Numbered from the stretch's first letter, positions 29,701 to 52,965 are shown. The stretch: DNA of 64,000 nucleotides from Acidobacteriota bacterium (GCA_029263375.1 JAJCXP010000366.1:2402-66401), one strand, 5' to 3'. Numbers and translations: made by a program. The notes: generated by a model not told the origin, from the letters alone.

Positions 29701-30006
29701 TTGGGCGAGCCACAGGAGAAGTGTGTCCAGAGCAAACCCCTCTTCCCGCTCGGTCGCGTTGTGGCCACGCCGGGAGTGCTCGCGGCCCTCGAGGCCGCGG
29801 GCGAGCTCCCGCACGGCTACCTCGCGCGACACGTTCGGGGCGAGTGGGGCGACATCCCGGAAGAGGATCGCAAGGAGAACGAACTCTCGCTGCGCGAGGG
29901 CTTCCGGATCCTCTCCGCCTACCGCACCCGCCTCGGCACCCGGCTCTGGGTGATCACCGAGGCCGATCGCTCGTCGACCTGTTTCCTCCTGCCGGAGGAG
30001 TACTGA
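29701..30006 (+). CDS. small conserved hypothetical protein (TTG start)
   Basis: 101 aa. RBS GAAAGGAGG 7 nt upstream of TTG. N-terminus MGEPQEKC mirrors the RadC N-terminus MSEPQESC. Confidence 0.4.
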   Translation: MGEPQEKCVQSKPLFPLGRVVATPGVLAALEAAGELPHGYLARHVRGEWGDIPEEDRKENELSLREGFRILSAYRTRLGTRLWVITEADRSSTCFLLPEEY

Positions 30007-30035
30007 ACGTCCATCCACCTGAAAGGAGGTACCCC

Positions 30036-34207: not shown

Positions 34208-37200
34208 TCAGGAATCTGGACCACCCACTGCCGTCTTCGTCGCGCCACCATGCTCCGTCACGCGAGGGCGGCACTTCACTTTGATGGCGCCGTTGCTGAA
34301 AGCCTCATCTGTGGATTGGCTGGACCAGAGGTAGGCCTCGCCCGGCCGGAGGTGGGCCATCTTGTCGGGCGTGAGGCCGCGGAGGGCGGCGTTGGCTTTT
34401 TGGATGTGCTTCAGCCAGGCAGGCGAGTTGAACTTGTGCAGGATTATCTGGCTCGAGAGCTCGATGAGGGAGACAGGCACCGAGGGCGGATCCTGGCTGG
34501 CGACCATGATGCTCGTCCCCTTGTGGCGCATTTCGCGAACCACTTCGACGAGGCCGGCCACCAGGTCCGGGCTCTCGATGTACTTGTGGGCTTCGTCGAA
34601 GACCACCAGCTTGTTGAAGGCCTTCCCGTCGTGCCTCGCATCGGCGAAGAGCTGAAGGAGCACAACGAAGAGGCCCAGCGCCTCGTCCTTCTCGATGAAC
34701 TCGTCACGCAAGTCGACGATGATGAGCCGCCCCGGCCGGATGATCTCGGCAAGGCGGACGCTGTCATCGATGTACTCGGCGGCAAGGTCGAGGCGTAGGC
34801 GTGCCATGTCCTTGAGGTGGTCCGGCAGGGGCGAGCCTTCGATTCCCTGGCGTAGGCTGGCCAATGTGAGGTCGTGGCGGAGCGACTTCATCACGCGATT
34901 CAACAGGCGGATGTAGGTCGCCTGGTTGCCTACAGCGCCCATCAGGAATCGCCAGTGGCTCGTCTGGAGCTCGGCGGCGGCGAACTTCAGGGGTTGGACC
35001 TCGATCCCCTCATACTCGCGGCGGCGTTGGTCGAGCTTGTCCGCAGGCACTAGCAGTACAACGTCTGAGAGGGCCTTGGGTTTAGCGCCGAATCTCTCCC
35101 GCAGTAGCGCGATCTGGCCCTCATTCGAGTTGGGGGCCACCATCGACGTGAACTCGGGCTCGTAGTCCATCGTCGGGCTGTAGTGGAAGATGACCGTCGC
35201 CAGTGGCTGTGGCAGCTCGTTGATGTGCGGGATCGGCAGCGACGCCATCTCGGCGATTGTGCCCAGGGTGTAGGACTTACCGCCTCCCTGGACGCCGAAG
35301 AGGCTGATCGTATGCGTCTCGTTGAGATCGAGGGCGACCTTCCGCGCGGCGAGCTCGCCAAGGATCCCGTACTGGGGGGAGGCGCCCGTAGCGCCAATGA
35401 GCACGTCGTAGGGTGGCCAGTCCCGCACACCCGGAGCCTTGGGCTCTCCAGACGTGGGCGGATCTGGCTCGGCGATCGGGGACGTCGGAACCGAGTCTTC
35501 GTTCGTGAGCTTGTCCAACTCCGGTGTCACGGACTGTGGCTCGGTGGCCGAGGCGACGGTTGGCGGCGCCACAGGTCCGCTTCCACCATCGCGGCCGTCC
35601 GCGGGGTCGCTGTCCTCTGCCTCGGAAGCTGTAGAGGCGAGAGACTCCTCACCCAGGGTGTGGCGTGCTCTCAAATCTTCCCAAGAGACGGAGCGGTCGC
35701 GAGACTGCGCCAAGAAGGCCGCCTCGTCCAGCGCGGGCACAGAAGGCGCCCGCTCTCGGCGCGCCGAGAGTTGGGTGGTGCTGGACGTGCCCGGCCTCAT
35801 GAGGACGACATCCTCCGCGGCGTCGACCGCCACCTCGTCGAGGCTTGGCTCCGGCAACGCAGCATCGATGAGTTGCTGAATGAGGTCAGCGCCGATGCGG
35901 TGGTGCTCGATGCCCGACTCATGCTCGGGCGGCTCCGTCCCCGGCTTGTCGAAGTCGAAGATGATAGCCGCCCGTGTGAAGTCGAGCCGATAGCCGCTCT
36001 CGAGGCTCCTGAGGAAGAACCTGGCCTCATCGGCAGCCGCCTCGCTCATCACGCCGTAGCGAATGGCCCGATCCAAGTAGAACTCGAGCAGGGTGACCAG
36101 TTCGCGCATCTTGACTAGACGGTCCGGGCGATCCACCGGGCCGCGCCGCGGGTCAAAGTGGTAGCCGAGCATCTCCTCGCTCTGGGCGATCTGTTCCGCG
36201 ATGGAGTCCTTGAGCTGGTTGAACGCTCCGATATCGCCAACCTGCTTGTAGCACTTCACCTCGACCAGCCGGCAGGTGATGATCCGCGCCTGCGCGTCGA
36301 GGTCGAACAGCGCGAGGTCGGTGCGCTTGAAGCTGACCTCGTCGCCGAGTTCGTCCGCGCTCTTCTTGAGTGCCCGGTACAGATCGAGGTGGGCGTCGAG
36401 AGGTACTACGATCTGATTCTGAAACACTCCCTGGTGCTCGAGGTACATGCGCGAGAGCGCCAGCCCGAGGGCCTCGGCCCGCTGGCTGGGCGAAGAGATG
36501 AGCTTGAGGGCGAGGCGTCCCGATAGGGACCGCAACTGGTCGAGGATGGCCACCGCGTGACGCCCGTCGGCCTTCAAGCAGTACTCCTCGAGGACTGGCT
36601 TGAGCATCGCTTCGAGTTCGGCGACAGACCGCGAGGTGATGACCAGGCGATGGCCGAGCCCGCCCGCAAGGTCTGGCGAATGGTCGATCAGGTACTCGGG
36701 TCGACCGAAGCGCCCGCCGTGGTCGAAGAACTCGATGCCCATGTTGCGGTCGATGGTCAGGACCCAGTCACTGACCTCGTGGACCTTGTGGAGGATGGCC
36801 CGGTCCTCGGCGTCGAGCACTAGCTTCGTCACGGGCCGCAGGCCTAGCCCCGTCTCGCCGGTCGCGACCGTCGCCGCCGCACTGGAGATGAGCGCCGGCA
36901 CCGTGGAGAGCAGGTCGGTCAGCTCCTCGGCTCCGGCGAGCGGCAAGGCCAAGCCGTGCCTCGGCTGCCGTGCCCAAGCGACCGTCGTCTCGTCCTCCCG
37001 GTAGTCCACCAGGAAGTCCTGCACCAGGCCGTGGATGGGTGCCGTCGCCTCCTCGGCCGAGGCGCGCGCGGCCCCTACCTCCTCTGCTGGAAACAGGTCG
37101 AAAAGCAGCGACAGGTGCGCAGCGTGCTCCTCGGGGGCCCGGCGGAAGTCCGTCGTCGGCCGAATCGCTAACGCGAGCTTCGGCCTTAGATGACTCTCTG

Positions 37201-39793
37201 TGGGCGTGGAGAAAGCATCGGCTTCCTTGGCGGCCACTCCCGCCGTAGATGAAAGAAGATCTGCGAGCGACTCGCCGACACCGGGAGCGTCTGGGTCAGG
37301 AACGAAGAGCCGGACGTCGTAACGGATGTTGGCGAAGGCTGGTTGCTTCTGGAGCTGCAGCAGCATGGCAGCCAGCACGTTCGCCCGGCCCGCGTTGAAG
37401 GCGTTGACCACTAGGGTCCGCACGTAGGGGTGCTGAACGAGGTAGCGCAGCGCGCGCGACGCTAGGTACGTGCCGTCAATGGCGGCGCCTCCGATGGCCG
37501 GCTCGGGTAGGCCCAGCGCAGCGCACACGTCTCCCACGAGACTGCGCGGGTCTTCCTCGCGCGGCGGTGCGTACAGAGTCCAGAAGGGGTGGAGGTTGTC
37601 GATAGCCGTCAGTAGCCGACCCGCCGTCGTGGGGAGGACCGGGGGGAAACTCACCGGTGCCAGGAGGCACAGAAGTGCCTCCCGTGTTGGCACCGCGAAT
37701 TCCCTCGGAGCTGTCTTGGCTTCTAGGAGCCAGAGCTCGGACAACTCTGCCCAGGCTGCCATCCAAAGCGCCCGGAGCGGGTGCGTCGGCGCTACGAGAG
37801 CCGCCTCTCTCCGGCGGCCTCGGTGATCGCGAATCGCAAGGGTGATGCTGTCTATGGAGAGCATGTGCCGCAGATCGGCCAGTGCCAGCTTCGTCCCGCT
37901 GCCGCCCCTGGACTCAGCTCGATGGAGAAGCTCCTTAATGACTCGGGTATAGGCGTCCGCGTACTCGGTGATGAGCGGGCGAAGTGCCCGCAGGTCAGCC
38001 CCTTGGGTGACGAGTTCCTTGGTCCCTGATTGAACCGCTTCGAAGTACAGTTCTCTGGCAACGAGGAAGCGGCTCACAGCCTCTCCTTCGGGCCAACGTA
38101 CCGACTCACCGGTGGCTTGGCCTGCAGAGCCCATCGAAATCGGAATCCGCCAGCCAATGGGGCCGTCCGCCGCCCTGAGAATCCTCTGCTCCAGGATCTT
38201 GAGTGGGCGGCTCACCGGCACATTAATCGTGCCCCCGTGCCCGAGCCTGACCTCGAGCACGTCGGCTGTGGCAGCTCGAGCCCGCGACCTGCCCTCTGCC
38301 CATTCGACGGACTTGACCACGATGGCGTCGGGATCCCGGCCGTCGATGAGCGCGGTGAAGCGGGCTCGCGTGCGAGCGTGGACCAGACTGGCCTCGCGCT
38401 GCACGGCCCGCTGAGGCGGATCGACGTCCACCTCGCCATCTGGGAGTACATAAAAGAGGTCGCTCTCGTTCGGGCGGGGGGTAATCTCGTCCTCGTCGAC
38501 GGCCCAGGGGAGCGGGTTGCCTGCAGCGTCCACCAGCGGAATGAGATCGCCCTCTTCGGTCTGGGCGAGCACACGCACGAAGTGCCAGCCTTCCTCCCAG
38601 TCAACGCGCCCCAGCTTGGAGAAGCTCACGTTGGCGGCGGTGCGACTGGACTTCCAGACGGACTTGCTCCTAACGAGGCCCACCGGGCCGTGCTCCTTGG
38701 AGATCACCTGCGCGATGAGCTTGCCCAGGCCCTGGACCTTGGCCGGGTGCGGATCAACGCGGAAAGTGACGTTGAACTTGGCGAGGCTCCGCTTCCCGAG
38801 CGGGAGCACCCGCTGACCGATGAGCCGCCCGAAGCGCTTGTCCTCCTCGTCGCCTTGGACAACCGGCAGGTTGGTTTCGACATCGCCGATGAAGATGCTG
38901 TCGGGCTCTTCGCCGCCGTCGTCGAACTCCCAGCGATTAAAGGCCAGCCCCCACAGGCTTCGGTCCAGCACGATAGACCGCGTCCAGCTGCGCGGGTCCT
39001 CAACGCCGGCCTTGGCAAGGAAGTTCCCGAGCTGGATGCGGAACCCGCGGTTTGCCAGGCCCAGGTCCAGCACGCGTCCTCTCTCGGACTTGGCCGACCA
39101 TGTGAGTTTCGTGACGCAATCCTGGTTGCGCGTCACCCGAGCAGGCGCTTTTTCAGGGTACGCGAGCAGCTCGAAATCTGGCACGAGAGACAGCTCGTAG
39201 AGCGCACCTCCGAGCGCTTCCGCGTCGTACCCGTTGACCTTTGCGGTCAGCAGGAACCGCACCACGGCGACAGGATCGGCGAAGGGCCATGGCGGCACGG
39301 CATCGGTTAGGCGTCGCAGCGCCTCGCTGACTGCTCCACGGAGACCAGGCTCTAGCTCTCCCAGGAGCTGGGCACGCAGCTCGCCATACACGTCGCTGAT
39401 CGCGACATCCTCGAATGTGGCAACACCGAACGAATCCTCGGCTGCCGTCCGGATCTCTGGCGGGATGAACGCGAGCAGGGGTGGCCGCTGCGCTCCGTCC
39501 GGCAGTGGGTTGCGCAGCTCGACGAGCTTGGTGGCACTGACGGTGAGCTCCGGGGGCGTTGAAGGCCTTCGTCCGTCTCCCAGGATGACAACTTCGGCGG
39601 CTGGCACCTCAGCGCGGAGACGGCCGCACAACCGCACCATCACATCCACGTCCAGGTCGGCGATGCGCATGCAATGGCCGGCCGTCCGAGAACGAAGGCG
39701 CTCTGCCAGCTGCGGGAGCAGCATACGCTCGAGCTCAGCGGACACGTCGTAGGGCTGGAGCTCACGTAACCCCACTTGTCCAGCGCGGCTCAC
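34208..39793 (-). CDS. 1861-aa protein with C-terminal HerA/FtsK-like (DUF87-type) P-loop ATPase. Last gene of the RM-like/kinase operon
   Basis: C-terminal Walker A ISLFGVQGGGKSYTLG. Walker B KLVVFDEAHKYI. N-terminal ~1450 aa without recognised motifs. Start overlaps the upstream stop (ATGA). Confidence 0.7.
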   Translation of the reverse strand: MSRAGQVGLRELQPYDVSAELERMLLPQLAERLRSRTAGHCMRIADLDVDVMVRLCGRLRAEVPAAEVVILGDGRRPSTPPELTVSATKLVELRNPLPDGAQRPPLLAFIPPEIRTAAEDSFGVATFEDVAISDVYGELRAQLLGELEPGLRGAVSEALRRLTDAVPPWPFADPVAVVRFLLTAKVNGYDAEALGGALYELSLVPDFELLAYPEKAPARVTRNQDCVTKLTWSAKSERGRVLDLGLANRGFRIQLGNFLAKAGVEDPRSWTRSIVLDRSLWGLAFNRWEFDDGGEEPDSIFIGDVETNLPVVQGDEEDKRFGRLIGQRVLPLGKRSLAKFNVTFRVDPHPAKVQGLGKLIAQVISKEHGPVGLVRSKSVWKSSRTAANVSFSKLGRVDWEEGWHFVRVLAQTEEGDLIPLVDAAGNPLPWAVDEDEITPRPNESDLFYVLPDGEVDVDPPQRAVQREASLVHARTRARFTALIDGRDPDAIVVKSVEWAEGRSRARAATADVLEVRLGHGGTINVPVSRPLKILEQRILRAADGPIGWRIPISMGSAGQATGESVRWPEGEAVSRFLVARELYFEAVQSGTKELVTQGADLRALRPLITEYADAYTRVIKELLHRAESRGGSGTKLALADLRHMLSIDSITLAIRDHRGRRREAALVAPTHPLRALWMAAWAELSELWLLEAKTAPREFAVPTREALLCLLAPVSFPPVLPTTAGRLLTAIDNLHPFWTLYAPPREEDPRSLVGDVCAALGLPEPAIGGAAIDGTYLASRALRYLVQHPYVRTLVVNAFNAGRANVLAAMLLQLQKQPAFANIRYDVRLFVPDPDAPGVGESLADLLSSTAGVAAKEADAFSTPTESHLRPKLALAIRPTTDFRRAPEEHAAHLSLLFDLFPAEEVGAARASAEEATAPIHGLVQDFLVDYREDETTVAWARQPRHGLALPLAGAEELTDLLSTVPALISSAAATVATGETGLGLRPVTKLVLDAEDRAILHKVHEVSDWVLTIDRNMGIEFFDHGGRFGRPEYLIDHSPDLAGGLGHRLVITSRSVAELEAMLKPVLEEYCLKADGRHAVAILDQLRSLSGRLALKLISSPSQRAEALGLALSRMYLEHQGVFQNQIVVPLDAHLDLYRALKKSADELGDEVSFKRTDLALFDLDAQARIITCRLVEVKCYKQVGDIGAFNQLKDSIAEQIAQSEEMLGYHFDPRRGPVDRPDRLVKMRELVTLLEFYLDRAIRYGVMSEAAADEARFFLRSLESGYRLDFTRAAIIFDFDKPGTEPPEHESGIEHHRIGADLIQQLIDAALPEPSLDEVAVDAAEDVVLMRPGTSSTTQLSARRERAPSVPALDEAAFLAQSRDRSVSWEDLRARHTLGEESLASTASEAEDSDPADGRDGGSGPVAPPTVASATEPQSVTPELDKLTNEDSVPTSPIAEPDPPTSGEPKAPGVRDWPPYDVLIGATGASPQYGILGELAARKVALDLNETHTISLFGVQGGGKSYTLGTIAEMASLPIPHINELPQPLATVIFHYSPTMDYEPEFTSMVAPNSNEGQIALLRERFGAKPKALSDVVLLVPADKLDQRRREYEGIEVQPLKFAAAELQTSHWRFLMGAVGNQATYIRLLNRVMKSLRHDLTLASLRQGIEGSPLPDHLKDMARLRLDLAAEYIDDSVRLAEIIRPGRLIIVDLRDEFIEKDEALGLFVVLLQLFADARHDGKAFNKLVVFDEAHKYIESPDLVAGLVEVVREMRHKGTSIMVASQDPPSVPVSLIELSSQIILHKFNSPAWLKHIQKANAALRGLTPDKMAHLRPGEAYLWSSQSTDEAFSNGAIKVKCRPRVTEHGGATKTAVGGPDS

Positions 39794-41481
39794 GGCTGAC
39801 CTCCTTCACTCGAGGTGTCGGTAGGCGAGCCGTTACGACCGATCCGGTAACGGGGAACAACCGTCTGGGTGACGTAGGCGTCGGATAGGTCCTGGTAAAA
39901 GCCGACGTCCCGAAGACGCGCCATGAAGGCCTCCAGATTGGACCGTAGCGCGGCGCGATCCGCGATCGACGGAGCGTCGAAGCCGTCTCCATGGGGCAGC
40001 CGATCGATATGCAGGCCGTAGCGCTCGCGCAGGAAAGTCAACAGCGCGTCGATGCGAAGCTCACCGGTGTAGTAGCCCAGCGCTCCTCCCGGTCGCAGAA
40101 CGGCGATCTGAAGCAGCACCTCTAGGAGGCGGCTGTCGAGTACGAACCGGCGCGGTGCTTTCTTGACGCGGGGTTGAGCGATGACGGCACCGGCGCGGTT
40201 CTTCAGCAGAAGCGAGTCGATGCATTCGGTAATGTACTGGCGGTGGAACCGGCCACGCAGCGCGACGAGCATCTCGATGTAGGTCTCGAACTCGTCTAGA
40301 CCCATCTCGGTAACAGCCTTCAGCTCGGGGTCCAGGTCGGCGTCAGGCGCACCGCTGGAGTCTTGGATGAGCCCGTAAACCCGCTGGCCGAAGAACTTCT
40401 CGCGCTCGGCTTTGTGCATCGGCTCGAGGAGCTGGTGGACCTCGGCCACAGTGAAAGTCCCGCTAGGCGGGCTGGTCAGCTTGCCTCGACGCACGAGGTC
40501 GGTGGCGAACTCGTCGAGCTTCCGCGTCGCGAAATAGGCCTTTACGAAGGAGGGAACGCGGCGGTAGTGCATGTCAGCGCTCCGCTCGGCGAGCACCGCC
40601 ATGGTGGTGCCAGGCTGGCTCACGACGTCCAGCAGCAGCCCTACGCGATGCGGGCAGTCACCATGGGGATCGTCCGCGCTTTTCGAGTTCATGGGACAGG
40701 CGGCGCAGGTCGGGTCCTCACCCTTCCGCCGGACTAGCGCCGGCAGCAGCTTGAACAAGCGGAGGTGGTAGAGAGCCAAGTGAAAAGAGAACAGCACCTT
40801 CAGGTAATCGACCATCACCGATCGCGGCACGAAGCGCTGGTAGAAGAGGAGCCGCATCACGTCCTCGGCTAGCAGGTCCGCAGCCCCGACGCAGAGCGGC
40901 GGGTGGCTCTCGCGCCCCGCGCGGGTGTCCGCCGCGTCGTCCACCTGGTCGAGCAAGCGCAGCAGCGCCTGCGTCTCCACGTCGAGAATCGCCCCCTGGT
41001 CGGCACGCCCGGTGACTTTGTCGTGACCCTGGAAGAAAAAGTGGTCGAGGTGCTCGAGCGCCTTCTGCCCAGCCCCGCCGCGGGCGCCGGAGATCAGGTC
41101 ATAGAGGTGCTGCGCGGCGCCGTAGTCACGAGAGTGCTTTGGGTTGCGGAAGCGATAAGTGAATCCGTGCAACGGTCGTGGCGCGGCGATAGCCTGGTTG
41201 GCCTTGCCCCGATTGACCACGTCCATCAAATGAGTCTCGATCCAACGGAACAAGATGTCACGATGGTCGGCAAACCCGGTGAACCACTCGGGGTGCTCGA
41301 GGAACTCCTCCACGAAGGCCTCAGTCGACAGCTCAGCCTTGCGTCGTAGCCGACTCGGGAAGCCGTTGTGGGCCAAGCGCGCAAAAAAGGCCGTCAAGAC
41401 CCGGTCCATCTCGAGCTGCTTGAAGTCGAGGTGACTGATCTTGGGGAGACGAAACTCCCGGTCGCGCTTCGACAAAGCCAT
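39790..41481 (-). CDS. 563-aa conserved hypothetical protein (operon member)
   Basis: Translationally coupled on both sides. Cys cluster CAACPMNSKSADDPHGDCPH could bind metal. No family recognised. Confidence 0.5.
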   Translation of the reverse strand: MALSKRDREFRLPKISHLDFKQLEMDRVLTAFFARLAHNGFPSRLRRKAELSTEAFVEEFLEHPEWFTGFADHRDILFRWIETHLMDVVNRGKANQAIAAPRPLHGFTYRFRNPKHSRDYGAAQHLYDLISGARGGAGQKALEHLDHFFFQGHDKVTGRADQGAILDVETQALLRLLDQVDDAADTRAGRESHPPLCVGAADLLAEDVMRLLFYQRFVPRSVMVDYLKVLFSFHLALYHLRLFKLLPALVRRKGEDPTCAACPMNSKSADDPHGDCPHRVGLLLDVVSQPGTTMAVLAERSADMHYRRVPSFVKAYFATRKLDEFATDLVRRGKLTSPPSGTFTVAEVHQLLEPMHKAEREKFFGQRVYGLIQDSSGAPDADLDPELKAVTEMGLDEFETYIEMLVALRGRFHRQYITECIDSLLLKNRAGAVIAQPRVKKAPRRFVLDSRLLEVLLQIAVLRPGGALGYYTGELRIDALLTFLRERYGLHIDRLPHGDGFDAPSIADRAALRSNLEAFMARLRDVGFYQDLSDAYVTQTVVPRYRIGRNGSPTDTSSEGGQP

Positions 41482-44400
41482 CAGACCACGTCCGCCGGGA
41501 GCGCCACCGGCGCAGTATCGACAGGTCCGAGAGCCTTCATCTCCAGGCGGCCGTCGCCGTGGCGCTCGATACGGTAGAAATCGTGGCCGGTCGTCGTCAA
41601 TAGGACCTCCTGGTACGGCTCGGAGCCGAGCAGATTCTTGAAGACAGCGAGGCTCAGGTAATGCCCCTGCTCCTCCTCAATGCTCGGTCGGTAGCCCTCA
41701 CCCACCCGCTCCAGCATCTCAAAGACGTCGAGGTTGATCTGGATTTCTGCCTCGTTCCCGGCCTCACCCCGGTAGCGCAAGACCAGGCCGATAGGCATGT
41801 GCTCGATGAAGAGCGCGCTGCCGGCAGAGTCGCTGATAGCCAACGAGAATCGCTCGGGTGGGAACACGCGGTAGCTGCGCACCGTGCCGCGTTCTACCTC
41901 CCGCACACGCAGCGCAAGCCTTCCGTCGAGGCGGCCGGGGTCGCTCAACCCCTCTCCGCGGTTAATAGCCCGGAGGATCCGCGGAAGCACCTCATGCAAT
42001 GGTGCCTCGCCCCGCACCAGGCCCAACATCTGCTCGGCGGAGCGGTAGGGGAGCATCTGGCGCCAGCCGGAGTCCCGCCGCTCGAAGAAGGCGCGGCGCC
42101 GGACCATTTCCACATACCCCTGGTGCGCGCCAAGGCGGTGCTCGGTGGGTCGGCCTGAATAGTCACGGGGGAGGTCGTCGAACAGACGCTGGATCACCTC
42201 GCGGTCGTAGTCGGCGCGGCGGGCAAAGCGGAACAGACTTCGGTCGACGACGGGCGACACGAAGTCTATGGCCCGGTCGAACCGCGGATCGCTGACGTGG
42301 CCAACATCGACCTCCTGGAGTAACGCGAGCAACCGATCGGCGTTGGCCGTATCGCCGCCCATCCAGGAGTTGAAGTAAAAGCCCTGGACCACGGCCGCCC
42401 GGTCACCTGCCTTGTAGAGATCGTGGATGGCCTGGCAGTCGCGTGTTCCGGCCAGCATGTATGCGACGGCAGAGCGTAGATCCCTCATCGTGATGTGGAG
42501 TCGACCACGCAGATGCGTGATCGCGTAGAGGGTCTTGAGGCGCTCGATGACCTTGTGTCCCGCGGTCTCGTCCTGGAAGGTCCGCGCATTGTGGAGTACG
42601 TAGCAGCGCTCCTTCAGGTCACAGCTGTTGCAGGGCTCCCAAAAGGCCTCGTGCGTCAGCCGGCGAATGAGCCTCGCGAAGATCGACTCGTCGCCGCCCT
42701 TGGGATCCCCTTCGAAGAGCTCCAGACCACCGGTGGCGGTCACAACGCTGCGGAGGTTGAGGTTGACGACCGCCACGCGGTGCTCTGGCGTGCCGCTGAC
42801 CAACCCCACGCGAACTACTCGTTCGAGGAGCGGGAAGCGCTCGCGCTCCGTGGTGAGGAAGTCGACGAGGCGGCCTTCGTTGATGGCGATGAGGCGGACC
42901 TCGTCGTCTGGCCAGGCGTCCGCGTCCGCGCCGGCGAACGGCGCAAAGAAGTCCCCGAGAACCTCGTCGCTCTTCTGGTCGCCCTCGTCCTGGCTGCCGT
43001 CGTAGTTGGTCAAGTAGGTCCGGTCTTGAAGTCGAAACCGGCGGCCGTTGACTAGCGGCGGGTCAAAGGCCGCCTGGTTGCCATGAGCCCGCTGCTCCAG
43101 CCGCTGCAGGAATGCGGTCTTGCCGTCGCCGGCGTTGCCCGTGATCAACACTAGCCGGAACTCTCCGCGGAGAACCGCGGGCTCCAGCTGCCGGTCGAGC
43201 GCGGTCTCGACGTAGGTTCTCTCACCAAGCGCGTCCAGTCCGCGTGTGCCCACGTTGCTCTGTTGGCTCTGGCTATAGAGCGTCAACAGGCGGGCGACAA
43301 AGGGGTTGGTATTGGGGGGCGTCGAGCCACCGTCGTCGAGCCCGACGGTGGCCCAGGTCTCGGTGGTTTCGGATCTGGCCCGCCGGGCTTGCTGGACTCC
43401 GGCGAGCGATGCCTGCAACTCAGCGATGGACGCGAAGCGGTCGGCGCGCTTCGGCGCGATGGCCTTCACCGCGACTTCGGCGAGCTCGGGTGCCAAATCC
43501 GAGAGCCCGGAGATTGAGCGGGGGTCCAAGGGTGGCTCACCCGGCGGCGGCGTCGCGGCCAGCCAAGGGTATGCCCCCGTGATCGCTTCGTAGAGTGTTA
43601 CCCCGAGAGCGTAAAGGTCGCGATCGGCGAGGTCCGAAGGGCGCGGAACGGCGTTGAGATCGATGTCAGGCGGCAGGTAGCGCCGGGAACCGCCGCCGCG
43701 TCCATTGTCAGCGGCGGCGAGCACGGACACGTTGAAGTCGATGATCCTCACGCCACGGTCGGTCCAGATCAGGTTCCGCGGCTTGATGTCGCAGTGGTAT
43801 ACGCCGTGCCTGTGCAGGTGGGCGAGCCCCTCGGCTACCTGGCGGGCTAGCTCGAGCGCGTCCTCGGGGGCGAAGAGACCGCCCTCGACCATCTCGCCGA
43901 CATCCAGCCCCTCGATGTACTCGAAGACGATGAATGGCGGCCCGCCGCGCGGCAGCAGATCGGCGTCGATGACCTTCACGACGTTCGGGTGCTCGGGCAC
44001 ACGGAGCAACGTCCGGTACTCCTTCTTGAGGCGGTCGAGTGTCGAGTGGCGGTCGCGCAGGATGAGCTTCATCGCGCGCGAGACATCGCCGAGGGTATCG
44101 ATGACCTTGTAGACCACTCCGAATGAGCCGGGGCGGCCGAGGCGGCGATCCACCAGGTACTTGTGCGTCAGATGCGTACCCGGCGCGAGCTGGCTGTAGT
44201 CGACCTCGGGCCGAGGCTCGGTCTCTGGCTCGGGCGCTGTCGGCTCGTTCTCCGCGCTTGCCTCCGCAGCCAGCAGCGTCGCCAGCTCGGTAGCGGCCTT
44301 TCCCGCGGTCGGACGCCGGTCCGGGTCGAAGGCGCAAAGCCGCTGCAGCCAGTTGTCGAAAGCGCTGGCCTGACCGCTTTCCGATGCGTTTCCGTCCCCG

Positions 44401-45707
44401 CCCCGTGGGGTCGCCAGCTCCGGCCGATGCTCCGAGGGCTTCACCGAGAACACGCCGCCCTGATCAAAGACCTCGGTGGGACTGGCGAAAGGCTTATCGC
44501 CGGTGAAGAGCTCGTAGAGCACGAGCCCGGCGCTGAACACGTCAGAGGCCGCGCTCGCTTTCTGGGGCTCCCGGAATGCCTCGGGAGCCGTGTACAGGGG
44601 CTCCAGCTCGTCGACGATCTCGTGCGCGATGGTGCGGGAGCGATCGGTGCCTGCGCGGGCGAAGTCGAAGCCGATGAGCCGCACGCGCTCGTCAGTGCCG
44701 ATCAGAATCGTGCTCGGTGTCAGGTTGCGATGAACGACGTCGTGCTGATGCGCGTGAGCCAGGGCACCGAGCAGTTCCGACGCCACGCGCAGCTTCTGAT
44801 CAAGAGTGAGCGCAAGGTTTGCCTTGTCGATGTGCACGCGTAATGCCTGGCCGCGGACATCCTCGGTAACCAGAACGAAACGATCCTCGTGCTCGTCTAC
44901 AGGGGCGAAGTCCCGTACCCCCACGATAGCGGGATGCCCGGGCATCTGGTTTAGCGCGTTGTAGGCGTTAGCGATCCGGGCCCGCTGCTGGGCAATCTCA
45001 CCTGGGTCCGTGAGATACGGGTCTGCCTTGTAGACTCGCAGCAGGATGCGCCCCGAGCGCTTGCCGGCGAAGGTATTGAATCCGCGGTATTCCGTATACG
45101 CGTCGGTCCCACCGAGGCGCTCCTCGACCTCCCAGTTGCCGAAGCGCAGCGGCCCGGTGCGAGGCCGTGCCACACCCTGGAGCGCCTTGAGCACCATGCT
45201 GTGCAGGATGCTGATGTTCTTGGAGAAGCGACCGCCGATCCGGGCAGCGTTCTGGAATAGCCCGGGAGCCTTGAGGAGTGTGGTGACGCTCGGCGCGTCT
45301 CGACCGCTGGGATCCTGGAGCACGGCCCCGGGGGACGCGAGCAGCACCACCGCATCGACATAGACTCCTTCGAGGTCGCGACGCCCACGCTGGCTATCAG
45401 TGATGATTCCCTTGAGGCTACGCGCGTGGGCGCGGAGTTTGATGAGCGGCGAAGTGTAGGGCTGCCGTCCGTCCGGGTGCCACTTGGGCCCGTAGACGTC
45501 GATGAGCCCGCGCGTGCCCTTCACGTCGACCAGGTACACCGCGTGCGGGGCGATGACTGCCAGGTCCACCTCGAAGAGCTCTCCGCCGCGCACGATCTCG
45601 AAGTTGTGGACGAGCAAGTAGCCGTCCGGAAGGCGGTCCCGTAGGTGGCGAATGGCCCGGCGCTCGGCCTCGTTGACCGGCTCGCCGATGGGGATCACTC
45701 TTGCCAT
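41481..45707 (-). CDS. NERD-domain plus tandem protein-kinase (pseudokinase then kinase) plus P-loop NTPase protein, 1408 aa
   Basis: N-terminal NERD-like segment (VIPIGEPVNEAERRAIRHL...DLAVIAPHAVYLVDVKG). Kinase 1 has HRNLTPSTIL/GFDFAR/YTAPE, with the catalytic Asp replaced by Asn. Kinase 2 has GRPGSFGVVYKV, AMKLI, YHCDIKPRNL, DFN. Then a P-loop LVLITGNAGDGKTAFL. Confidence 0.75.
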   Translation of the reverse strand: MARVIPIGEPVNEAERRAIRHLRDRLPDGYLLVHNFEIVRGGELFEVDLAVIAPHAVYLVDVKGTRGLIDVYGPKWHPDGRQPYTSPLIKLRAHARSLKGIITDSQRGRRDLEGVYVDAVVLLASPGAVLQDPSGRDAPSVTTLLKAPGLFQNAARIGGRFSKNISILHSMVLKALQGVARPRTGPLRFGNWEVEERLGGTDAYTEYRGFNTFAGKRSGRILLRVYKADPYLTDPGEIAQQRARIANAYNALNQMPGHPAIVGVRDFAPVDEHEDRFVLVTEDVRGQALRVHIDKANLALTLDQKLRVASELLGALAHAHQHDVVHRNLTPSTILIGTDERVRLIGFDFARAGTDRSRTIAHEIVDELEPLYTAPEAFREPQKASAASDVFSAGLVLYELFTGDKPFASPTEVFDQGGVFSVKPSEHRPELATPRGGDGNASESGQASAFDNWLQRLCAFDPDRRPTAGKAATELATLLAAEASAENEPTAPEPETEPRPEVDYSQLAPGTHLTHKYLVDRRLGRPGSFGVVYKVIDTLGDVSRAMKLILRDRHSTLDRLKKEYRTLLRVPEHPNVVKVIDADLLPRGGPPFIVFEYIEGLDVGEMVEGGLFAPEDALELARQVAEGLAHLHRHGVYHCDIKPRNLIWTDRGVRIIDFNVSVLAAADNGRGGGSRRYLPPDIDLNAVPRPSDLADRDLYALGVTLYEAITGAYPWLAATPPPGEPPLDPRSISGLSDLAPELAEVAVKAIAPKRADRFASIAELQASLAGVQQARRARSETTETWATVGLDDGGSTPPNTNPFVARLLTLYSQSQQSNVGTRGLDALGERTYVETALDRQLEPAVLRGEFRLVLITGNAGDGKTAFLQRLEQRAHGNQAAFDPPLVNGRRFRLQDRTYLTNYDGSQDEGDQKSDEVLGDFFAPFAGADADAWPDDEVRLIAINEGRLVDFLTTERERFPLLERVVRVGLVSGTPEHRVAVVNLNLRSVVTATGGLELFEGDPKGGDESIFARLIRRLTHEAFWEPCNSCDLKERCYVLHNARTFQDETAGHKVIERLKTLYAITHLRGRLHITMRDLRSAVAYMLAGTRDCQAIHDLYKAGDRAAVVQGFYFNSWMGGDTANADRLLALLQEVDVGHVSDPRFDRAIDFVSPVVDRSLFRFARRADYDREVIQRLFDDLPRDYSGRPTEHRLGAHQGYVEMVRRRAFFERRDSGWRQMLPYRSAEQMLGLVRGEAPLHEVLPRILRAINRGEGLSDPGRLDGRLALRVREVERGTVRSYRVFPPERFSLAISDSAGSALFIEHMPIGLVLRYRGEAGNEAEIQINLDVFEMLERVGEGYRPSIEEEQGHYLSLAVFKNLLGSEPYQEVLLTTTGHDFYRIERHGDGRLEMKALGPVDTAPVALPADVV

Positions 45708-47110
45708 CAGGCGGCCTCCTCGATAGCGGCCTCGACGAGGGAGACTGCTTCGTCTTCGGCTGCCGTCGCACGAATCCGAGCCTCGAAGGCGTCTTGTACC
45801 CGTTTGTCCACGTTTTCCATGAAATCCTCAGGCGCCCGGACGATGGGGACGCTGGCCAGAAAGGAAGGCCAGAGCGCCGGAACCGACGCCCCGGTCATGG
45901 TCCTCGTGAGCAGCGGGTACCCGATGCTCGGTGCAGCCAAGTACGCGAAGAGATATCCTGCCGGGACTTGGTCTCCCTTCGGGACAATCCGAATCACATG
46001 ATCGGACGTCGCCGCACCATCCAGCGCCGCATCCACGAACTGGGGGCGGCCAATGATGCCACCTAGCTGCCCGGACCTCGCCAGAAGCACCCACCCCGTG
46101 TGGATGATGTACTTGTAGAGGTCCTTTGTCCGCCTCCGGGAGAGATGCTTGTCCGCCTTGCGGTTGAGCCGGAACAGCTCTCCGCTTGTGAAGAACGGGA
46201 TCCCGTACCCCGCATCTACGTAGATGTGCTTGAAAAGCGGGACATCGAAGACGTCGGCTATCAGGCCGAGTTCCCAGAAGCCGCTCGCATGCGTGGTCGC
46301 CCAGCGGTCGAGCATTGTCGCCACGGGGTTATGGAAGAAAGCATCAAAGCGACGGGAAGAACTCAGTGCGCCGACACTGACTCCATGCCCGAACCGATGG
46401 ATGTCTGACTCCCTAGGCGGAGGCGTTGGCGGACAGAGTCGGCGCTCAACCTCAGCGACGACTCCCGCCAGCCTCCTTGCTGCCGCGGTCCGCAGCCTTG
46501 CGGCTTCGCTCACCAGTTCGTGTGCTCGCCTTTCGGTTGTGTCCGCCAGTCGCGGCACCGGAAGGTCGTAGATTCTGGCGGGCGGCAGGAATGGAACAGT
46601 CCCGCCCGTCGTCCCCACAGCTACAATGGCGACTCCAAGACGCGACGCCAGGAATGCGAACAAGTAGCCGGGCCTAATCTTGCTTCGGTCAGGCACGACT
46701 TTCATCACGTTGTCCGACCCGACTTTCCCAGCCATGTCCGGTCGGACGAAGGCTACCCGTCCGACCGTGCCATACGAGGTAATGAGGGTCGTGCCTTCCT
46801 CCAACAACATGAACGGCATCGCCGTGGCTTGGCTTCTCGCGATGAGCGGAGCCGAGCTGATGTCTGCTGCCAACATCTCGGAACCAGAGAGCAGCGCGAC
46901 GCCGTGGTCAGGCGAGTCTGTATACCGCCGCGCGAACCGCGGTCCGTTGAAGATCCCCTCCTTGCCACCCCTAGTAAGGTGCGAGAGGCCTGTAGTCCGA
47001 AGCCGCCTCAGAGTCGCCCGCGCTTCGCGGGCTGCAGAAAGGTACGGGGCCGCAGACAAGCGATGACCTGACTCGAGTAGCCAGTCACTCGGCACAGACT
47101 TGTCCCTCAT
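45707..47110 (-). CDS. type I RM specificity subunit-like protein (HsdS-like, two TRDs), copy 2
   Basis: Conserved N-terminal, central (DLPVPRLADTTERRAHELV) and C-terminal (EDEAVSLVEAAIEEAA) regions, shared with copy 1, flanking two divergent TRDs. Start Met chosen by ATGA coupling at 47110. Confidence 0.6.
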   Translation of the reverse strand: MRDKSVPSDWLLESGHRLSAAPYLSAAREARATLRRLRTTGLSHLTRGGKEGIFNGPRFARRYTDSPDHGVALLSGSEMLAADISSAPLIARSQATAMPFMLLEEGTTLITSYGTVGRVAFVRPDMAGKVGSDNVMKVVPDRSKIRPGYLFAFLASRLGVAIVAVGTTGGTVPFLPPARIYDLPVPRLADTTERRAHELVSEAARLRTAAARRLAGVVAEVERRLCPPTPPPRESDIHRFGHGVSVGALSSSRRFDAFFHNPVATMLDRWATTHASGFWELGLIADVFDVPLFKHIYVDAGYGIPFFTSGELFRLNRKADKHLSRRRTKDLYKYIIHTGWVLLARSGQLGGIIGRPQFVDAALDGAATSDHVIRIVPKGDQVPAGYLFAYLAAPSIGYPLLTRTMTGASVPALWPSFLASVPIVRAPEDFMENVDKRVQDAFEARIRATAAEDEAVSLVEAAIEEAA

Positions 47111-47391
47111 GCCCCGTCCCGCGGGCACCACCGCCGTAGTGTGTCGAATAGCGAGGGACCCCTGCAGGGTGAGGTGGCGCTCAGCGCCTCCCAACCGCCA
47201 GTGCGCTGGGGCGCGGCCCCGAGAGCCGTGAGTGGCACGACTGCATCGACGGATACCCCCAGCCTTTCGCCGAGAGCGGTTTCGGAGTTAAGCATGAGGA
47301 GCTGGTCGCCCGACAGGTGATCCCGTAGGTGGCAAATGGTCCGTCGCTCGGCCTCATTGACCGGCTTGCCGATGGGGATCACCGTCGCCAT
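47107..47391 (-). pseudogene. duplicated 5' fragment of the NERD-kinase gene (first ~70 bp, then divergent)
   Basis: MATVIPIGKPVNEAERR matches kinase N-terminus MARVIPIGEPVNEAERR. The DNA at 47320-47394 nearly duplicates 45640-45710, including the junction TGATGGC. Confidence 0.5.
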
Positions 47392-48791
47392 CAGGCGGCT
47401 TCCTCGATGGCGCTCTCAACGAGGTCGACAGCTTCGTCCTCGAGAGCGACAGCCCTCTGCCTGTCGACGTACGCGCTGACTACTTCTTCGTGCACAGACC
47501 TTTGCATGTGTCGAGACGGGTAGGGCACCGGTATTTGCGCACGGTAAACGTTGTGATGGTCCTGCTGCTTGGTGCCCACTGAGATCGAGCGGAGCATCCG
47601 AAAGGCGCTTTCCGAGCGCATGAACGCGAACAAGGCTCCCCGCGGCATTATCCTCTCGTCGGCGACGATGCGAAGGATGTCCTCCGAGTAGGCGAGGCCT
47701 ACGGCCGACCCCCAAGCGAACTCAGCGCGGCAGTAGAGCTCAGATTCGCCGAGGGTGCCTCGGGCCGCCACAAGCGTAGTTCCAGCATCGACAAGAATGT
47801 CGTCCGCGACCGACGTTCTCGCAATCCACCGTCCACGAGGGCGAAGCCTAAACAGCTGCTTCTGCCCTATGAGCTCGTATGCGTACTCAGGCTCGGCGTC
47901 AATCCGCCTGTATCGACCTCCGCGCTTGAGAGTTCCTGGGACACAGATCTCGCCGAGCGGCTTCCAGGGCCCACTCCGGATGCGATCGCAAAGGCGCCTG
48001 AACCTCGGGTTGAAGTTGAGCGCGCGCAAGGACTCCACTTTTGGAAAGGTCGCCTGGAACCCGACGTCAGGGCCCTCTGACTGCCACTCGCGTGCAGTGA
48101 TGTCCTGGAGGCCAACCGAGGCGAAGAACTGAGCCGTCGTATCGGAAAGCGCACGCTGAGCTCCTGTCAGGGTAGTGCCGGCTTCGACTACGAGCGCATG
48201 CGCTCTCTCCTCCATGGCTGCGTCGAGCCGTGGGACCGGAATATCTGCGAGTTGCTCTGGCTCTACATGCTTGATGTTTCCACCATAGATCTGCTTCCGG
48301 ATCCATGCGTGCCCGAAACGACTGGCGAGAAAGGCATGGACGTAGCCGGGAGGCACTCTTGCCGAATCTGGGCGAACCCGAATGAGGTCGTGCGTTCCAC
48401 AGAGCCGATCAAAGTCTCCGCGAGCCCAGATTGCGCGGCCTAGGTTCATTCCCGAGCAGGTCACCAGGATCATCCCTGGTTGGAGCATGAGGAGGTCCAA
48501 GACGCTGCCCAACCGGAACGACAAGAAGGCCGATGGCCGGACATCCGCCTGAAGCAAAGCATTGCCAGAAACGTAGGGGCGACCATACTCCGGGCCTGCG
48601 GCGTAGATCCTCTTGAAGATCGGCCCCCTAAAGACTCCGCCGGGCGGGCAAAGGTCTCCAAGCGGGGTCGCCTTTCGGCCCAATTCTCGGAGGCGCGCTA
48701 CCGCTTGCTGGTCCTCGGACAGGTGGAAGCCACCCGTGAGCCGAGTCCCTTCGGACATGATGTCCGACGCCGAGACCGGGCCGACCCTCAT
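47391..48791 (-). CDS. type I RM specificity subunit-like protein (HsdS-like, two TRDs), copy 1
   Basis: DIPVPRLDAAMEERAHALV. C-terminus EDEAVDLVESAIEEAA. TRDs unrelated to copy 2. Start at 48791 overlaps the upstream stop (ATGA). Confidence 0.6.
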   Translation of the reverse strand: MRVGPVSASDIMSEGTRLTGGFHLSEDQQAVARLRELGRKATPLGDLCPPGGVFRGPIFKRIYAAGPEYGRPYVSGNALLQADVRPSAFLSFRLGSVLDLLMLQPGMILVTCSGMNLGRAIWARGDFDRLCGTHDLIRVRPDSARVPPGYVHAFLASRFGHAWIRKQIYGGNIKHVEPEQLADIPVPRLDAAMEERAHALVVEAGTTLTGAQRALSDTTAQFFASVGLQDITAREWQSEGPDVGFQATFPKVESLRALNFNPRFRRLCDRIRSGPWKPLGEICVPGTLKRGGRYRRIDAEPEYAYELIGQKQLFRLRPRGRWIARTSVADDILVDAGTTLVAARGTLGESELYCRAEFAWGSAVGLAYSEDILRIVADERIMPRGALFAFMRSESAFRMLRSISVGTKQQDHHNVYRAQIPVPYPSRHMQRSVHEEVVSAYVDRQRAVALEDEAVDLVESAIEEAA

Positions 48792-49420
48792 GCGCCAGCC
48801 TCCTGCGGGAACCAACGCCTTATCGAGCCCGCAAGCAGTTCGAAGGATGGATCTGTACAGCCGTGGACCGATATCGAGTCCGCGATTCGTGTGTAGACTA
48901 CTTTCGTCTTAAGCGACCTCTGTCTAACCAGCGCCTGGATCGTCTCCTTAGGCTCAGTCGGTTTGGGGGCGTCGGCTGGCCAAGCGCCCGTTCCTTCTAG
49001 GTGCCGCCGAAGGGAACCACCTGAGAAGTTCAGGGCTCGCTCCACATTTGGGTTGTCCTGCCAGAGCCAGATCTCGAGCTCCGGGTCGATCACGACCACT
49101 TCGCAGCGATCCCCCCACCCAGTCTGGCTCAACCGGGCGACGATTTCGTCGTGCACCTCATGAGCAGGGAGCTCGCCGCCATACTGTTGGTCGAGCACGA
49201 CAAGGGCGCGTCTGTGTGTGTTGAGGTAGGGCCGCAGTAGCTCGTGGGCGCTTTTGTGCACGCCACCGTCGGTGTGCATCGGATCGTGAAAAATATCTTC
49301 TTGGGGCCAAACGTCGAACCGTTGGCACTGCAGCGTCAGGTCCCACCTCTCCCGCCCAAAGAACGAGCGAAGTACTGCCACCATGGTGCTGTCAGCGCCA
49401 AGGATGACAAGCTCCCTCAT
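48788..49420 (-). CDS. small partner protein of the AAA ATPase (family unassigned; DUF4276/RloB-type partners are candidates)
   Basis: 210 aa. Coupled to the ATPase gene by a 4-nt overlap. N-terminus MRELVILGADST. Confidence 0.45.
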   Translation of the reverse strand: MRELVILGADSTMVAVLRSFFGRERWDLTLQCQRFDVWPQEDIFHDPMHTDGGVHKSAHELLRPYLNTHRRALVVLDQQYGGELPAHEVHDEIVARLSQTGWGDRCEVVVIDPELEIWLWQDNPNVERALNFSGGSLRRHLEGTGAWPADAPKPTEPKETIQALVRQRSLKTKVVYTRIADSISVHGCTDPSFELLAGSIRRWFPQEAGA

Positions 49421-50697
49421 CCTAAGATACCTGCCGCGAACAGCGTTCCGAGGTCGAGCGACTCCTTCCAGCCCACTAGGCGGGGATGCTGTGGCCCAGG
49501 CACGACCGTCGCCGCTCCATTGCGGCCGAGCCTGGCCGCCAGTAGCTGGTCAAGCTCGACGTTGGCCACAACGACAGGCGAGTGGGATGAGACGAGGACT
49601 TGACTCTCCTGCATCGAGGAAAGCGCCTCGAGTACCGTCTCGATTGCTTGAGGGTGGATTCCGTTCTCCGGCTCTTCCACCAGAAGGAGTCGAGGGGGCC
49701 GTTGGAGGTAGGTCAGCAGCGTGAGCGCGAGCACGCGCAGGGTACCGTCGGACAGGCCGGACGACGTAACGACGTGCCCGCCGTGGTAGGTCACACGGAA
49801 GTACGCGTGGTGGTCCTCCTCCCGCTCGACGGCCTCGATATCCGTCACCTGAGGTAGCGCTATGGCAACGTGCTCCTTCCAGGCAGCGAACTGATCGGGC
49901 GTCTCTTGCTGCAGCGACATGGCGAGCCACGGCAGGTTTGTCCCATCGGGCCTCACACGATCCGTCAAGCCCGGTGGGCTAGCCTTTCGCAGTTCACTCC
50001 ACACTGGGTCGAAGAGCACTGCATCCTCGGTCAGACTGTCGACAAGCCATCGGGCCGCCGGGAAATCCTCACGTGCCTCGAAACGGACCTTTGGGAGCGC
50101 CAGCAGGTCGGGTTCGAGTGCCGTGTTGCGGGCCTTGGCTCTAGGCTTGGATTCGACGCGGAGCTCGATCTCGCTGCCGTACTCGCGCCGAATGGCGAAG
50201 CGCCACTGGGGCCGTGGGCTAATCTCGCCGTGCAACCGTGCTTGGCCTCGCGGCGGTGAGTGCTGGTCGGAGAATGTAAAGAGGTACTCGTTCTGTACCT
50301 GCAGCGCCCTCTTGTCGAAGACTTGGAGGCGGAGTTCGTACCGGATGTACCTCGGCCAGCGCTGCTCGTTGCTCCGGACAGCATCAGTCGTTCCTTCGAG
50401 GAGGTCCCGTACGACACGCTCTGGGAGCCGTGCCTCGACGGCGAAGATGAACCAGTCTGCCCGTTCCTTGTGTACGAGTTCCACTAGCGAGCCCGCACGT
50501 GAACCACGCGGCTGTGTGCTCCTAAGGAACGCTGTCGAGATGTTGTCCGCCTCGATGAGATCTCCGAGCAAGATCGGAATGTCTAACAGCGTTGTCTTCC
50601 CGGCTCCGTTGGCCCCGATGATTACCCCGAAGTGGCCTAGATCCACGTCGAGCTGGTCGAAGCAGCGATAGCCGGTGGCCTCGATGCGCGTGATCAT
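49417..50697 (-). CDS. AAA/ABC-type (SMC-like) ATPase of the AAA_15/AAA_21 kind
   Basis: Walker A GANGAGKTTLL. Signature-like LSDGTLRVLAL. Walker B LLLVEEPENGIHP. Confidence 0.75.
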   Translation of the reverse strand: MITRIEATGYRCFDQLDVDLGHFGVIIGANGAGKTTLLDIPILLGDLIEADNISTAFLRSTQPRGSRAGSLVELVHKERADWFIFAVEARLPERVVRDLLEGTTDAVRSNEQRWPRYIRYELRLQVFDKRALQVQNEYLFTFSDQHSPPRGQARLHGEISPRPQWRFAIRREYGSEIELRVESKPRAKARNTALEPDLLALPKVRFEAREDFPAARWLVDSLTEDAVLFDPVWSELRKASPPGLTDRVRPDGTNLPWLAMSLQQETPDQFAAWKEHVAIALPQVTDIEAVEREEDHHAYFRVTYHGGHVVTSSGLSDGTLRVLALTLLTYLQRPPRLLLVEEPENGIHPQAIETVLEALSSMQESQVLVSSHSPVVVANVELDQLLAARLGRNGAATVVPGPQHPRLVGWKESLDLGTLFAAGILG

Positions 50698-52733: not shown

Positions 52734-52965
52734 CCAGCCCCTCCTTCGGTGTCGCGTCGCTGCTCGACTCGGCGCCGCCTTCGCGAACCCACGCGTCGAC
52801 GTCATCCTTCTTGAACTTCCAGAAGCGCCCAACCTTGTAACCGGGCATTCCCTTCCGGGTAACCCAAACGTACACAGTGTCCTTGCTCACGCCGAGGTAC
52901 TCGGCGATCTGGTCTACGGACATCCACCGGTCGTCCATCGGTCGTGCGCTCCCGTGCTGAGGCAT
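52726..52965 (-). CDS. HTH_17 (excisionase/MerR-like) DNA-binding protein. Either Xis of the island or a controller of the downstream operon
   Basis: MSVDQIAEYLGVSKDTVYVWVTRKGMPGYKVGRFWKFKKDDVDAW is an excisionase-family HTH. Translationally coupled to the MTase. Confidence 0.7.
   Translation of the reverse strand: MPQHGSARPMDDRWMSVDQIAEYLGVSKDTVYVWVTRKGMPGYKVGRFWKFKKDDVDAWVREGGAESSSDATPKEGLDD

Follow-up and report, generated by a model that had tools for sequence, protein, structure and literature searches.

The gene mad6 lies on the minus strand, at positions 41481-45707, of a 64,000-nucleotide stretch of DNA from an Acidobacteriota bacterium (GCA_029263375.1, JAJCXP010000366.1:2402-66401; hereafter the window, with positions counted from its first letter). 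By sequence comparison, its 1408-residue product is MAD6, already known by name as the kinase subunit of the anti-phage methylation-associated defense system (MADS), and an ordinary, sequence-divergent member of that family. MADS was reportedly published by Maestri et al. (Cell Host Microbe 2024). Our reading of the protein, to which we assign a probability of roughly 85%, is that it joins an N-terminal half like that of PglW, the kinase of the type 2 BREX (Pgl) system, to a core like the F subunit of the Dnd/Ssp systems, and that it acts as a sensor and regulator in restriction by Mad6, Mad7 and Mad8.

The open reading frame (ORF) of mad6 is uninterrupted, opens with ATG, and overlaps its neighbors at both start and stop as TGATG. 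A 1408-residue protein had been proposed at this position, with its strand left unstated, in an earlier reading of the sequence (the original prediction); the ORF is confirmed and the minus strand is now added. Mad6 scored 792.2 bits (E 3.2e-238) against the curated NCBIfam equivalog NF047741, methylation-associated defense system protein kinase MAD6, for which the cutoff is 460, and it matched the PADLOC mad6 model with an E value of 3.7e-130. A full-length search returned more than 1000 relatives and an NCBI protein that is 100% identical (P0121). The identity to the homologues found was 44-82%, the nearest MAD6 being P0122 at 82%, and a partial locus in a Trueperaceae metagenome-assembled genome encodes a MAD6 that is 74% identical. 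The best 120 relatives are mostly of 1370-1410 residues and have the same Pfam content, with several of them already named MAD6 in NCBI or UniRef. GTDB species genomes yielded at least 482 relatives, and the 80 best loci among them come from Actinomycetota, Myxococcota, Pseudomonadota, Planctomycetota, Cyanobacteria, Acidobacteriota and others. Given the curated cutoff passed, the complete mad1-mad8 operon described below, the identical NCBI protein and the many named homologues, the protein is not novel. A MAD6 variant of approximately 1600 residues was also encountered (P0127, P0129, P0144 and P0165; locus L031), which carries an additional PF04326 domain (AlbA_2/Schlafen-type, DNA-binding) besides the NERD, kinase and SspF-like domains.

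The gene and the domains of its product are as follows, all on the minus strand.

41481..45707, minus strand: mad6 (NF047741 MAD6, 792 bits vs 460).
45339..45674, minus strand: NERD (PD-(D/E)xK) nuclease domain, residues 12-123 (Pfam PF08378; Glu46, Asp48, Asp61, Lys63).
44253..45137, minus strand: pseudokinase domain, residues ~191-485 (alignments, residue counts in the family, kinase fold in the AlphaFold2 model).
43383..44183, minus strand: predicted active Hanks-type kinase domain, residues ~509-775 (Lys547, Glu563, HCD ending at 640, Asn645, DFN starting at 657).
41928..43307, minus strand: P-loop kinase-like domain of the SspF/DndF type, bearing a large helical lid, residues ~801-1260 (PADLOC SspF, motifs, AlphaFold2 model).
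41484..41927, minus strand: C-terminal alpha+beta domain, residues ~1261-1408 (secondary structure of the AlphaFold2 model; PADLOC DndF match at the C-terminus, E 7.8e-9).

Domains were assigned with Pfam profiles, and residues were counted in 112 close homologues and 74 species-level homologues (44-74% identity). Pfam matched NERD at residues 12-123 with 54.6 bits, above the cutoff of 22.1. It also matched protein kinase in two stretches (E 3e-54 overall) and, weakly, a P-loop at residues 835-886. The four-part order that had been proposed, nuclease-related domain, pseudokinase, kinase and P-loop, was thus recovered by Pfam and by the alignments, and the motifs quoted in its support are all present (HRN at 326-328, HCD at 638-640, DFN at 657-659 and ITGNAGDGKT at 855-864). 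The catalytic residues Glu46, Asp48, Asp61 and Lys63 of the NERD domain do not vary among the 112 close homologues and are kept in 72-73 of the 74 species-level ones, a conservation that, in these alignments, is far beyond chance. As judged from the homologues, all four modules of Mad6 are under strong purifying selection. The succession of NERD, inactive kinase and active kinase is not new. It has been published for PglW (PMC12839542) and, in a form where NERD and two S/T/Y kinases, one inactive and one active, are fused to the DndF core, for a subset of DndF proteins (PMC10853773; PMC12839542).

We aligned kinase domain 1 to Stk1 of S. aureus (4eqm), to PknB of M. tuberculosis, and to kinase domain 2 of Mad6 itself, and the alignments agree with each other. 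The lysine of strand beta3 is replaced by Arg224, the glutamate of helix alphaC by Ala248, the aspartate of HRD by Asn328, and the lysine and asparagine of the catalytic loop by Thr330 and Thr333. Gly346 stands in register with the aspartate of DFG, hence the homologous triplet is G-F-D; the D-F-A that the original prediction took for a degenerate DFG starts two residues too late. The sequence definition of a pseudokinase calls for the loss of at least one of the beta3 lysine, the HRD aspartate and the DFG aspartate, and domain 1 is devoid of all three, while it retains the APE motif and the kinase fold. The proposal that this domain is likely catalytically dead, made on the grounds of HRN and D-F-A, therefore holds, and it is strengthened by the further lost residues. 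Neither of the two outcomes named in advance as contrary to it, a domain 1 with its full set of catalytic residues or a region without a protein-kinase fold, was found. Among the close homologues, Asn328 is present in 108/112 and Arg224 in 111/112; at the species level, the HRD position holds N, E or A in 72 of the 74 and Asp in the other 2, and the beta3 position holds Lys in only 1. In a few MAD6 homologues the pseudokinase has Asp again, either in HRD or in register with DFG (P0209, P0236, P0131, P0203 and others) or at both positions (P0222), and all of these keep Arg at the beta3 lysine and Thr or Ser at the lysine of the catalytic loop.

Kinase domain 2 aligned with PknB from end to end. 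The Gly-rich loop GRPGSFG, Lys547, Glu563, the segment HCDIKPRN (with Asp640 and Asn645) and DFN (Asp657) are all kept, and the catalytic residues are invariant in 112/112 close and 74/74 species-level homologues. This complete and invariant set agrees with the earlier impression that the domain is active, and the pattern of a dead kinase first and a live kinase second is, by these alignments, a property of the whole MAD6 family. The AlphaFold2 model of residues 1-800 had a predicted local distance difference test score (pLDDT) of 82.9 and a predicted template modeling score (pTM) of 0.50. Its top structural matches were the pseudokinase-kinase tandems of JAK and TYK2 (8ewy, 4oli), followed by PknB.

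The C-terminal half had been described as a Walker-A NTPase region. The P-loop motif is indeed there, but a generic NTPase is not what the profiles, the asparagine in Walker B, the Cys3His insert and the alpha+beta domain point to; the core is of the SspF/DndF type. Residues 791-1408, scanned alone, matched the PADLOC models of SspF (E 1.7e-23 over approximately 410 residues, fragment residues 43-455) and DndF (E 7.8e-9), and when aligned C-terminal members of the family were scanned, the SspF models matched 40/40 and the DndF models 36-38/40. The published hallmarks of the DndF core are a canonical Walker A, an asparagine in Walker B, a motif where strand 2 ends, and a helical lid of approximately 200 residues with 12-13 helices, with a Zn-chelating insert in some versions, followed by an alpha+beta domain (Rakesh, Aravind and Krishnan, PMC10853773). 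Mad6 has the Walker A GNAGDGKT, a Walker B with Asn943 (hhhhN943-E-G, h being hydrophobic), and N901-Y-D903 at the end of strand 2, which is N-x-D as opposed to a contiguous ND. Within the lid is a Zn-type Cys3His insert (Cys1026, Cys1029, Cys1035, His1039), and these residues and motifs are all invariant or nearly so. The AlphaFold2 model of this half (pLDDT 86.6, pTM 0.87) places the motifs at the expected sites. Mad6 thus has the motif set, the large helical lid succeeded by an alpha+beta domain, and a significant profile match, and its C-terminal half is, on these comparisons, a homologue within the wider F-subunit family and not a DptF equivalog. Structure comparison of the model found no solved structures that resemble this half. 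When only the C-terminal half was used as the query, most of the matches were fragments, and a stand-alone family of such halves was considered and rejected, the two checked fragments on long contigs being MADS loci disrupted by insertion sequences or decayed. In one metagenome locus (L001, 3764-5527 and 8161-9912), two DDE transposases break the operon and mad6 is split into pieces of 399 and 1004 residues; in another (L002, 10001-18993), all that is left of MADS is the SspF-like half of mad6, together with mad7 and fragments of mad8.

A complete mad1-mad8 operon occupies 34208-52965 on the minus strand. Every gene in it scores above its NCBIfam MADS cutoff (bits vs cutoff are given below), and PADLOC assigns mad2-mad8.

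52726..52965, minus strand: mad1, excisionase-type helix-turn-helix (HTH) protein of 79 residues (NF047737, 90 vs 80; TIGR01764 excisionase domain).
50694..52673, minus strand: mad2, N6-adenine DNA methyltransferase (NF047738, 1034 vs 720; Pfam N6_Mtase, HSDR_N_2); the mechanical ORF extends to 52832, and the likely start is Met54 ("MSIEEGQ").
49417..50697, minus strand: mad3, AAA_21/ABC-type ATPase (NF047739, 527.7 vs 420; Pfam AAA_21).
48788..49420, minus strand: mad4 (NF047734, 229 vs 160).
47391..48815, minus strand: mad5 copy a, HsdS-like specificity subunit (NF047740, 464.9 vs 400; PADLOC specificity-subunit models).
47107..47391, minus strand: truncated 5' remnant of mad6 between the mad5 copies, a 94-codon ORF in a 285-bp gap.
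45707..47194, minus strand: mad5 copy b, divergent specificity subunit (NF047740, 403.6 vs 400).
39790..41481, minus strand: mad7 (NF047733, 678 vs 410; weak colinear SspG match at the C-terminus).
34208..39793, minus strand: mad8, 1861 residues, C-terminal HerA/FtsK-like ATPase (NF047742, 227.9 vs 175).

The N6-adenine methylase and the HsdS-like specificity genes justify the earlier description of the operon as restriction-modification-like. At the junctions of mad5b with mad6 and of mad6 with mad7, stop and start overlap as TGATG, and mad6 has a Shine-Dalgarno sequence, GAGGAGG, ahead of it. Mad8 has weak colinear matches to DndH/SspH and to HerA, and it matched the HerA-like TdpA in the PDB. 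MADS was described in P. aeruginosa SMC4386, where phage resistance requires each of mad2-4 and mad6-8, the system itself being defined by mad6-8; its MacSyFinder definition makes MAD6, MAD7 and MAD8 mandatory and adjacent and MAD1-MAD5 accessory, and the system is reported in Actinobacteria, Proteobacteria and other phyla, and with duplicated genes (10.1101/2023.03.30.534895). In the window MAD6, MAD7 and MAD8 are contiguous and overlapping, all above cutoff, with mad7 and mad8 as translationally coupled genes downstream of mad6, and the accessory MAD1-MAD5 are present, MAD5 twice. We compared this neighborhood with 82 related loci, comprising 80 GTDB species loci and 2 metagenome loci. In these, mad7 stands 3' of mad6 wherever the contig continues, and mad8 is next in all but one of the loci whose downstream sequence suffices. 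Of the loci that extend far enough in the upstream direction, nearly all have mad5 and mad2 there; mad3 and mad4 are present in a subset.

The SspF/DndF-type C-terminal half of Mad6, the SspG-like Mad7 and the DndH/SspH/HerA-like Mad8 together indicate that Mad6-Mad7-Mad8 is, at the level of sequence, a restriction module of the Dnd/SspFGH type joined to a type-I-like methylase. In the mechanism that we propose, Mad2 and Mad5 would mark the host DNA at a specific motif, and unmarked DNA would be passed to a Mad6-Mad7-Mad8 complex, for restriction in the manner of Dnd/SspFGH. Mad6 would be the sensor and regulator of this complex, its SspF-like domain binding nucleotide and docking Mad7 and Mad8. 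Its active kinase might be held or released by the neighboring pseudokinase, by analogy with JH2-JH1 of JAK, and it might autophosphorylate or phosphorylate the partner subunits as putative substrates, whereby restriction would be licensed; the NERD domain may add cleavage of DNA. In PglW, K677, the counterpart of the active-kinase lysine, is needed for both autophosphorylation and defense (PMC4365076). A bolder version holds that MADS is a machine of the Dnd/SspFGH type in which a type-I-like adenine methylase has taken the place of the phosphorothioate writer, with the tandem of Mad6 as an obligatory phospho-switch that activates the translocase-nuclease Mad8. We regard this version as possible but on balance doubtful. 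If it were true, a relay of protein phosphorylation would operate inside a restriction-modification system, leading from the finding of an unmethylated site to the activation of Mad8. The main text of the MADS preprint (10.1101/2023.03.30.534895) names neither Dnd nor Ssp, and no link of MADS to DndFGH was found in the searched literature that mentions both.

Several points weigh against our reading of the protein and its mechanism. The evidence at this locus consists of sequence comparison and predicted models, and a 2026 review lists the restriction mechanism of MADS as unknown (PMC12904381). The matches of Mad7 to SspG and of Mad8 to DndH/SspH are weak (E 2.6e-5 to 0.056), and the NCBIfam DptF equivalog (TIGR03238) gave Mad6 11.7 bits vs a cutoff of 50. 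An asparagine in Walker B is compatible with hydrolysis, with phosphate transfer, or with nucleotide binding alone. Allostery of the JAK kind in Mad6 is only an analogy, because the N-terminal model leaves the placement of the domains relative to each other uncertain (pTM 0.50).

Other identities for Mad6 were considered. The comparison with PglW that the original prediction recommended was apt, as the PADLOC PglW models are colinear with Mad6 (residues 13-767 against model positions 15-768, E 5.9e-64) and the coordinates of S. coelicolor PglW agree (NERD 12-130, atypical kinase 195-490, Hanks kinase 537-704; PMC4365076). That Mad6 is itself PglW is nonetheless extremely improbable. NCBIfam NF033442 (BREX_PglW) reached 194.5 bits vs a cutoff of 990, over the N-terminal half only, and the C-terminal half resembles SspF/DndF and has kept its Walker A intact, unlike the winged-HTH triad and degenerate iSTAND of PglW (PMC12839542). 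The operon held no matches to PglX, PglY or PglZ; MAD2 is the methylase there, and the model of BREX-2 PglX scored 16.9 vs 400. The failed curated cutoff and the missing partner genes led us to reject this identity. The homology of the C-terminal half to SspF/DndF, with Mad7 and Mad8 weakly like SspG and DndH/SspH, could also be taken to mean that Mad6 is the F subunit of a phosphorothioate-dependent Dnd/Ssp system that reads phosphorothioate marks, next to a methylase of an unrelated restriction-modification system. This we consider very unlikely and have rejected: the modification genes dndABCDE or sspABCD were found neither in the operon nor in the ten further large ORFs scanned in the window, mad6 is translationally coupled to mad5, and the DptF cutoff failed. 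In 80 species loci, moreover, mad6 almost always has the methylase and specificity genes directly upstream of it and in its own orientation, and phages that escape MADS in the published system are epigenetic (methylation) variants (10.1101/2023.03.30.534895). We likewise give almost no credence to the idea that Mad6 is an anti-phage Ser/Thr kinase working on its own, like Stk2 or PD-T4-6, which upon infection would phosphorylate many host proteins irrespective of its neighbors. Many PADLOC PD-T4-6 models do match both kinase domains (E down to 2.2e-67), yet these matches are confined to the kinase domains, and the best models are PADLOC mad6 and the curated MAD6. In essentially all 82 loci mad6 is linked to mad7 and mad8, and this, with the published requirement for both genes (10.1101/2023.03.30.534895), completes the case for its rejection.

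What the N-terminal enzymes are for is a separate matter. The original prediction had read infection-triggered signaling or abortive-infection logic into the fusion. Signaling of this kind through the kinase is conjectural, and for abortive infection we found no support: MADS+ P. aeruginosa grows equally with and without phage at a multiplicity of infection of 10 (10.1101/2023.03.30.534895), and this normal growth argues for direct immunity, and not cell suicide, as the main mode. In one form of that logic, NERD, pseudokinase and kinase are back-up suicide effectors directed at host DNA and proteins, used only if the phage blocks restriction by Mad8. Rakesh, Aravind and Krishnan put forward this hypothesis for kinase-fused DndF and for PglW (PMC10853773; PMC12839542), the N-terminal domains of DndF are generally variable add-ons (HEPN, GNAT, NERD, kinase; PMC10853773), and PglW is toxic when expressed in E. 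coli (PMC4365076). In MAD6, however, the N-terminal module is not optional, being conserved like the SspF-like core (kinase 2 in 74/74, NERD in 72-73/74); the growth of MADS+ cells is unlike abortive infection, and the PglW kinase lysine is needed for ordinary defense (PMC4365076). We judge the back-up proposal unlikely, and such a role may coexist with a primary one.

The two copies of mad5 in the window are 30% identical (BLASTP), and copy b is barely above the MAD5 cutoff. The mad6 remnant between them encodes a first segment of 54 residues that is 54% identical to the N-terminus of Mad6 (E 4e-15). The DNA of the junction, made up of the end of mad5, TGATG and the start of mad6, is repeated with ~88-90% identity over ~105 bp (47316-47420 and 45632-45736), and the ~35 nucleotides upstream of mad5b resemble the junction of mad4 with mad5a. 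In view of the remnant, the repeated junction and this upstream stretch, the arrangement is, as read from the sequence, the footprint of a specificity cassette gained when conserved flanks recombined. None of the other 82 MADS loci contained a second mad5 or the succession of mad5, mad6 remnant and mad5. Two mad5 genes may give a system that recognizes two motifs.

The flanks of the operon carry genes resembling the type-IV coupling protein of the TrwB/TraD type, as well as a DnaG-like primase that contains a CHC2 zinc finger (22218-23528, 29721-31052, 53956-55668 and 55680-57395). One flanking coupling-protein gene is apparently split into two adjacent ORFs, the second of which ends in an HTH_17 domain. 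Because coupling-protein-like genes and a DnaG-like primase flank the operon, its sequence context suggests a mobile-element setting, either an element of the integrative or conjugative type or what remains of one. Elsewhere in the window, a 378-residue ORF (1250-2386, plus strand) has weak SIR2-like PADLOC matches (E about 1e-6) and may be defense-related.

As a discovery Mad6 carries little weight, since the NCBI pipeline would annotate it as MAD6 automatically and its domain grammar has already been described for PglW and DndF. The residue map, with the losses of the pseudokinase, the DFG register, the invariant residues of NERD, kinase, Walker A, Asn-Walker B and Cys3His, and the SspF homology, may help in the design of mutants. 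That homology suggests that knowledge of Dnd/SspFGH is transferable to MADS, and the tandem mad5 with the mad6 remnant illustrates how specificity cassettes swap in MADS operons.

The locus in the window is like published MADS in that Mad6 passes the curated cutoff, has the length and domain order of hundreds of named homologues, and stands in the gene order mad1-2-3-4-5-6-7-8. It differs in its two divergent mad5 genes and its mad6 remnant, and the studied system is from P. aeruginosa. The tandem of Mad6 has its likeness in JAK JH2-JH1 and in plant tandem kinases, in which a pseudokinase also lies directly N-terminal of an active kinase, in one polypeptide and in an immune pathway; this is an analogy only, with a large root-mean-square deviation, an uncertain inter-domain geometry in the model, and common descent unsupported. 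With PglW, Mad6 shares a homologous and colinear N-terminal half and a place in a methylation-based defense operon, and activity of the second kinase domain has been shown for PglW. The C-terminal half of PglW has a domain like that of the C-terminus of the RNA polymerase alpha subunit, three winged-HTH domains and an inactive STAND, whereas Mad6 has the SspF/DndF-type P-loop core; the partners of PglW are PglX/Y/Z, BrxD and BrxHI, whereas those of Mad6 are Mad2-5, Mad7 and Mad8. With SspF/DndF, approximately 600 C-terminal residues are homologous, with the Walker A, the Asn Walker B, the acidic motif at strand 2, the lid insert and the alpha+beta domain in common, and G-like and H-like genes of matching size follow in both. 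The module of Mad6 is below the DptF cutoff and is coupled to N6-adenine methylation in place of phosphorothioation. Its C-terminal alpha+beta domain, described in DndF as fast-evolving, is conserved to the same extent as the remainder of Mad6, with a mean pairwise identity of 0.53 vs 0.49-0.58 for the other domains of Mad6.

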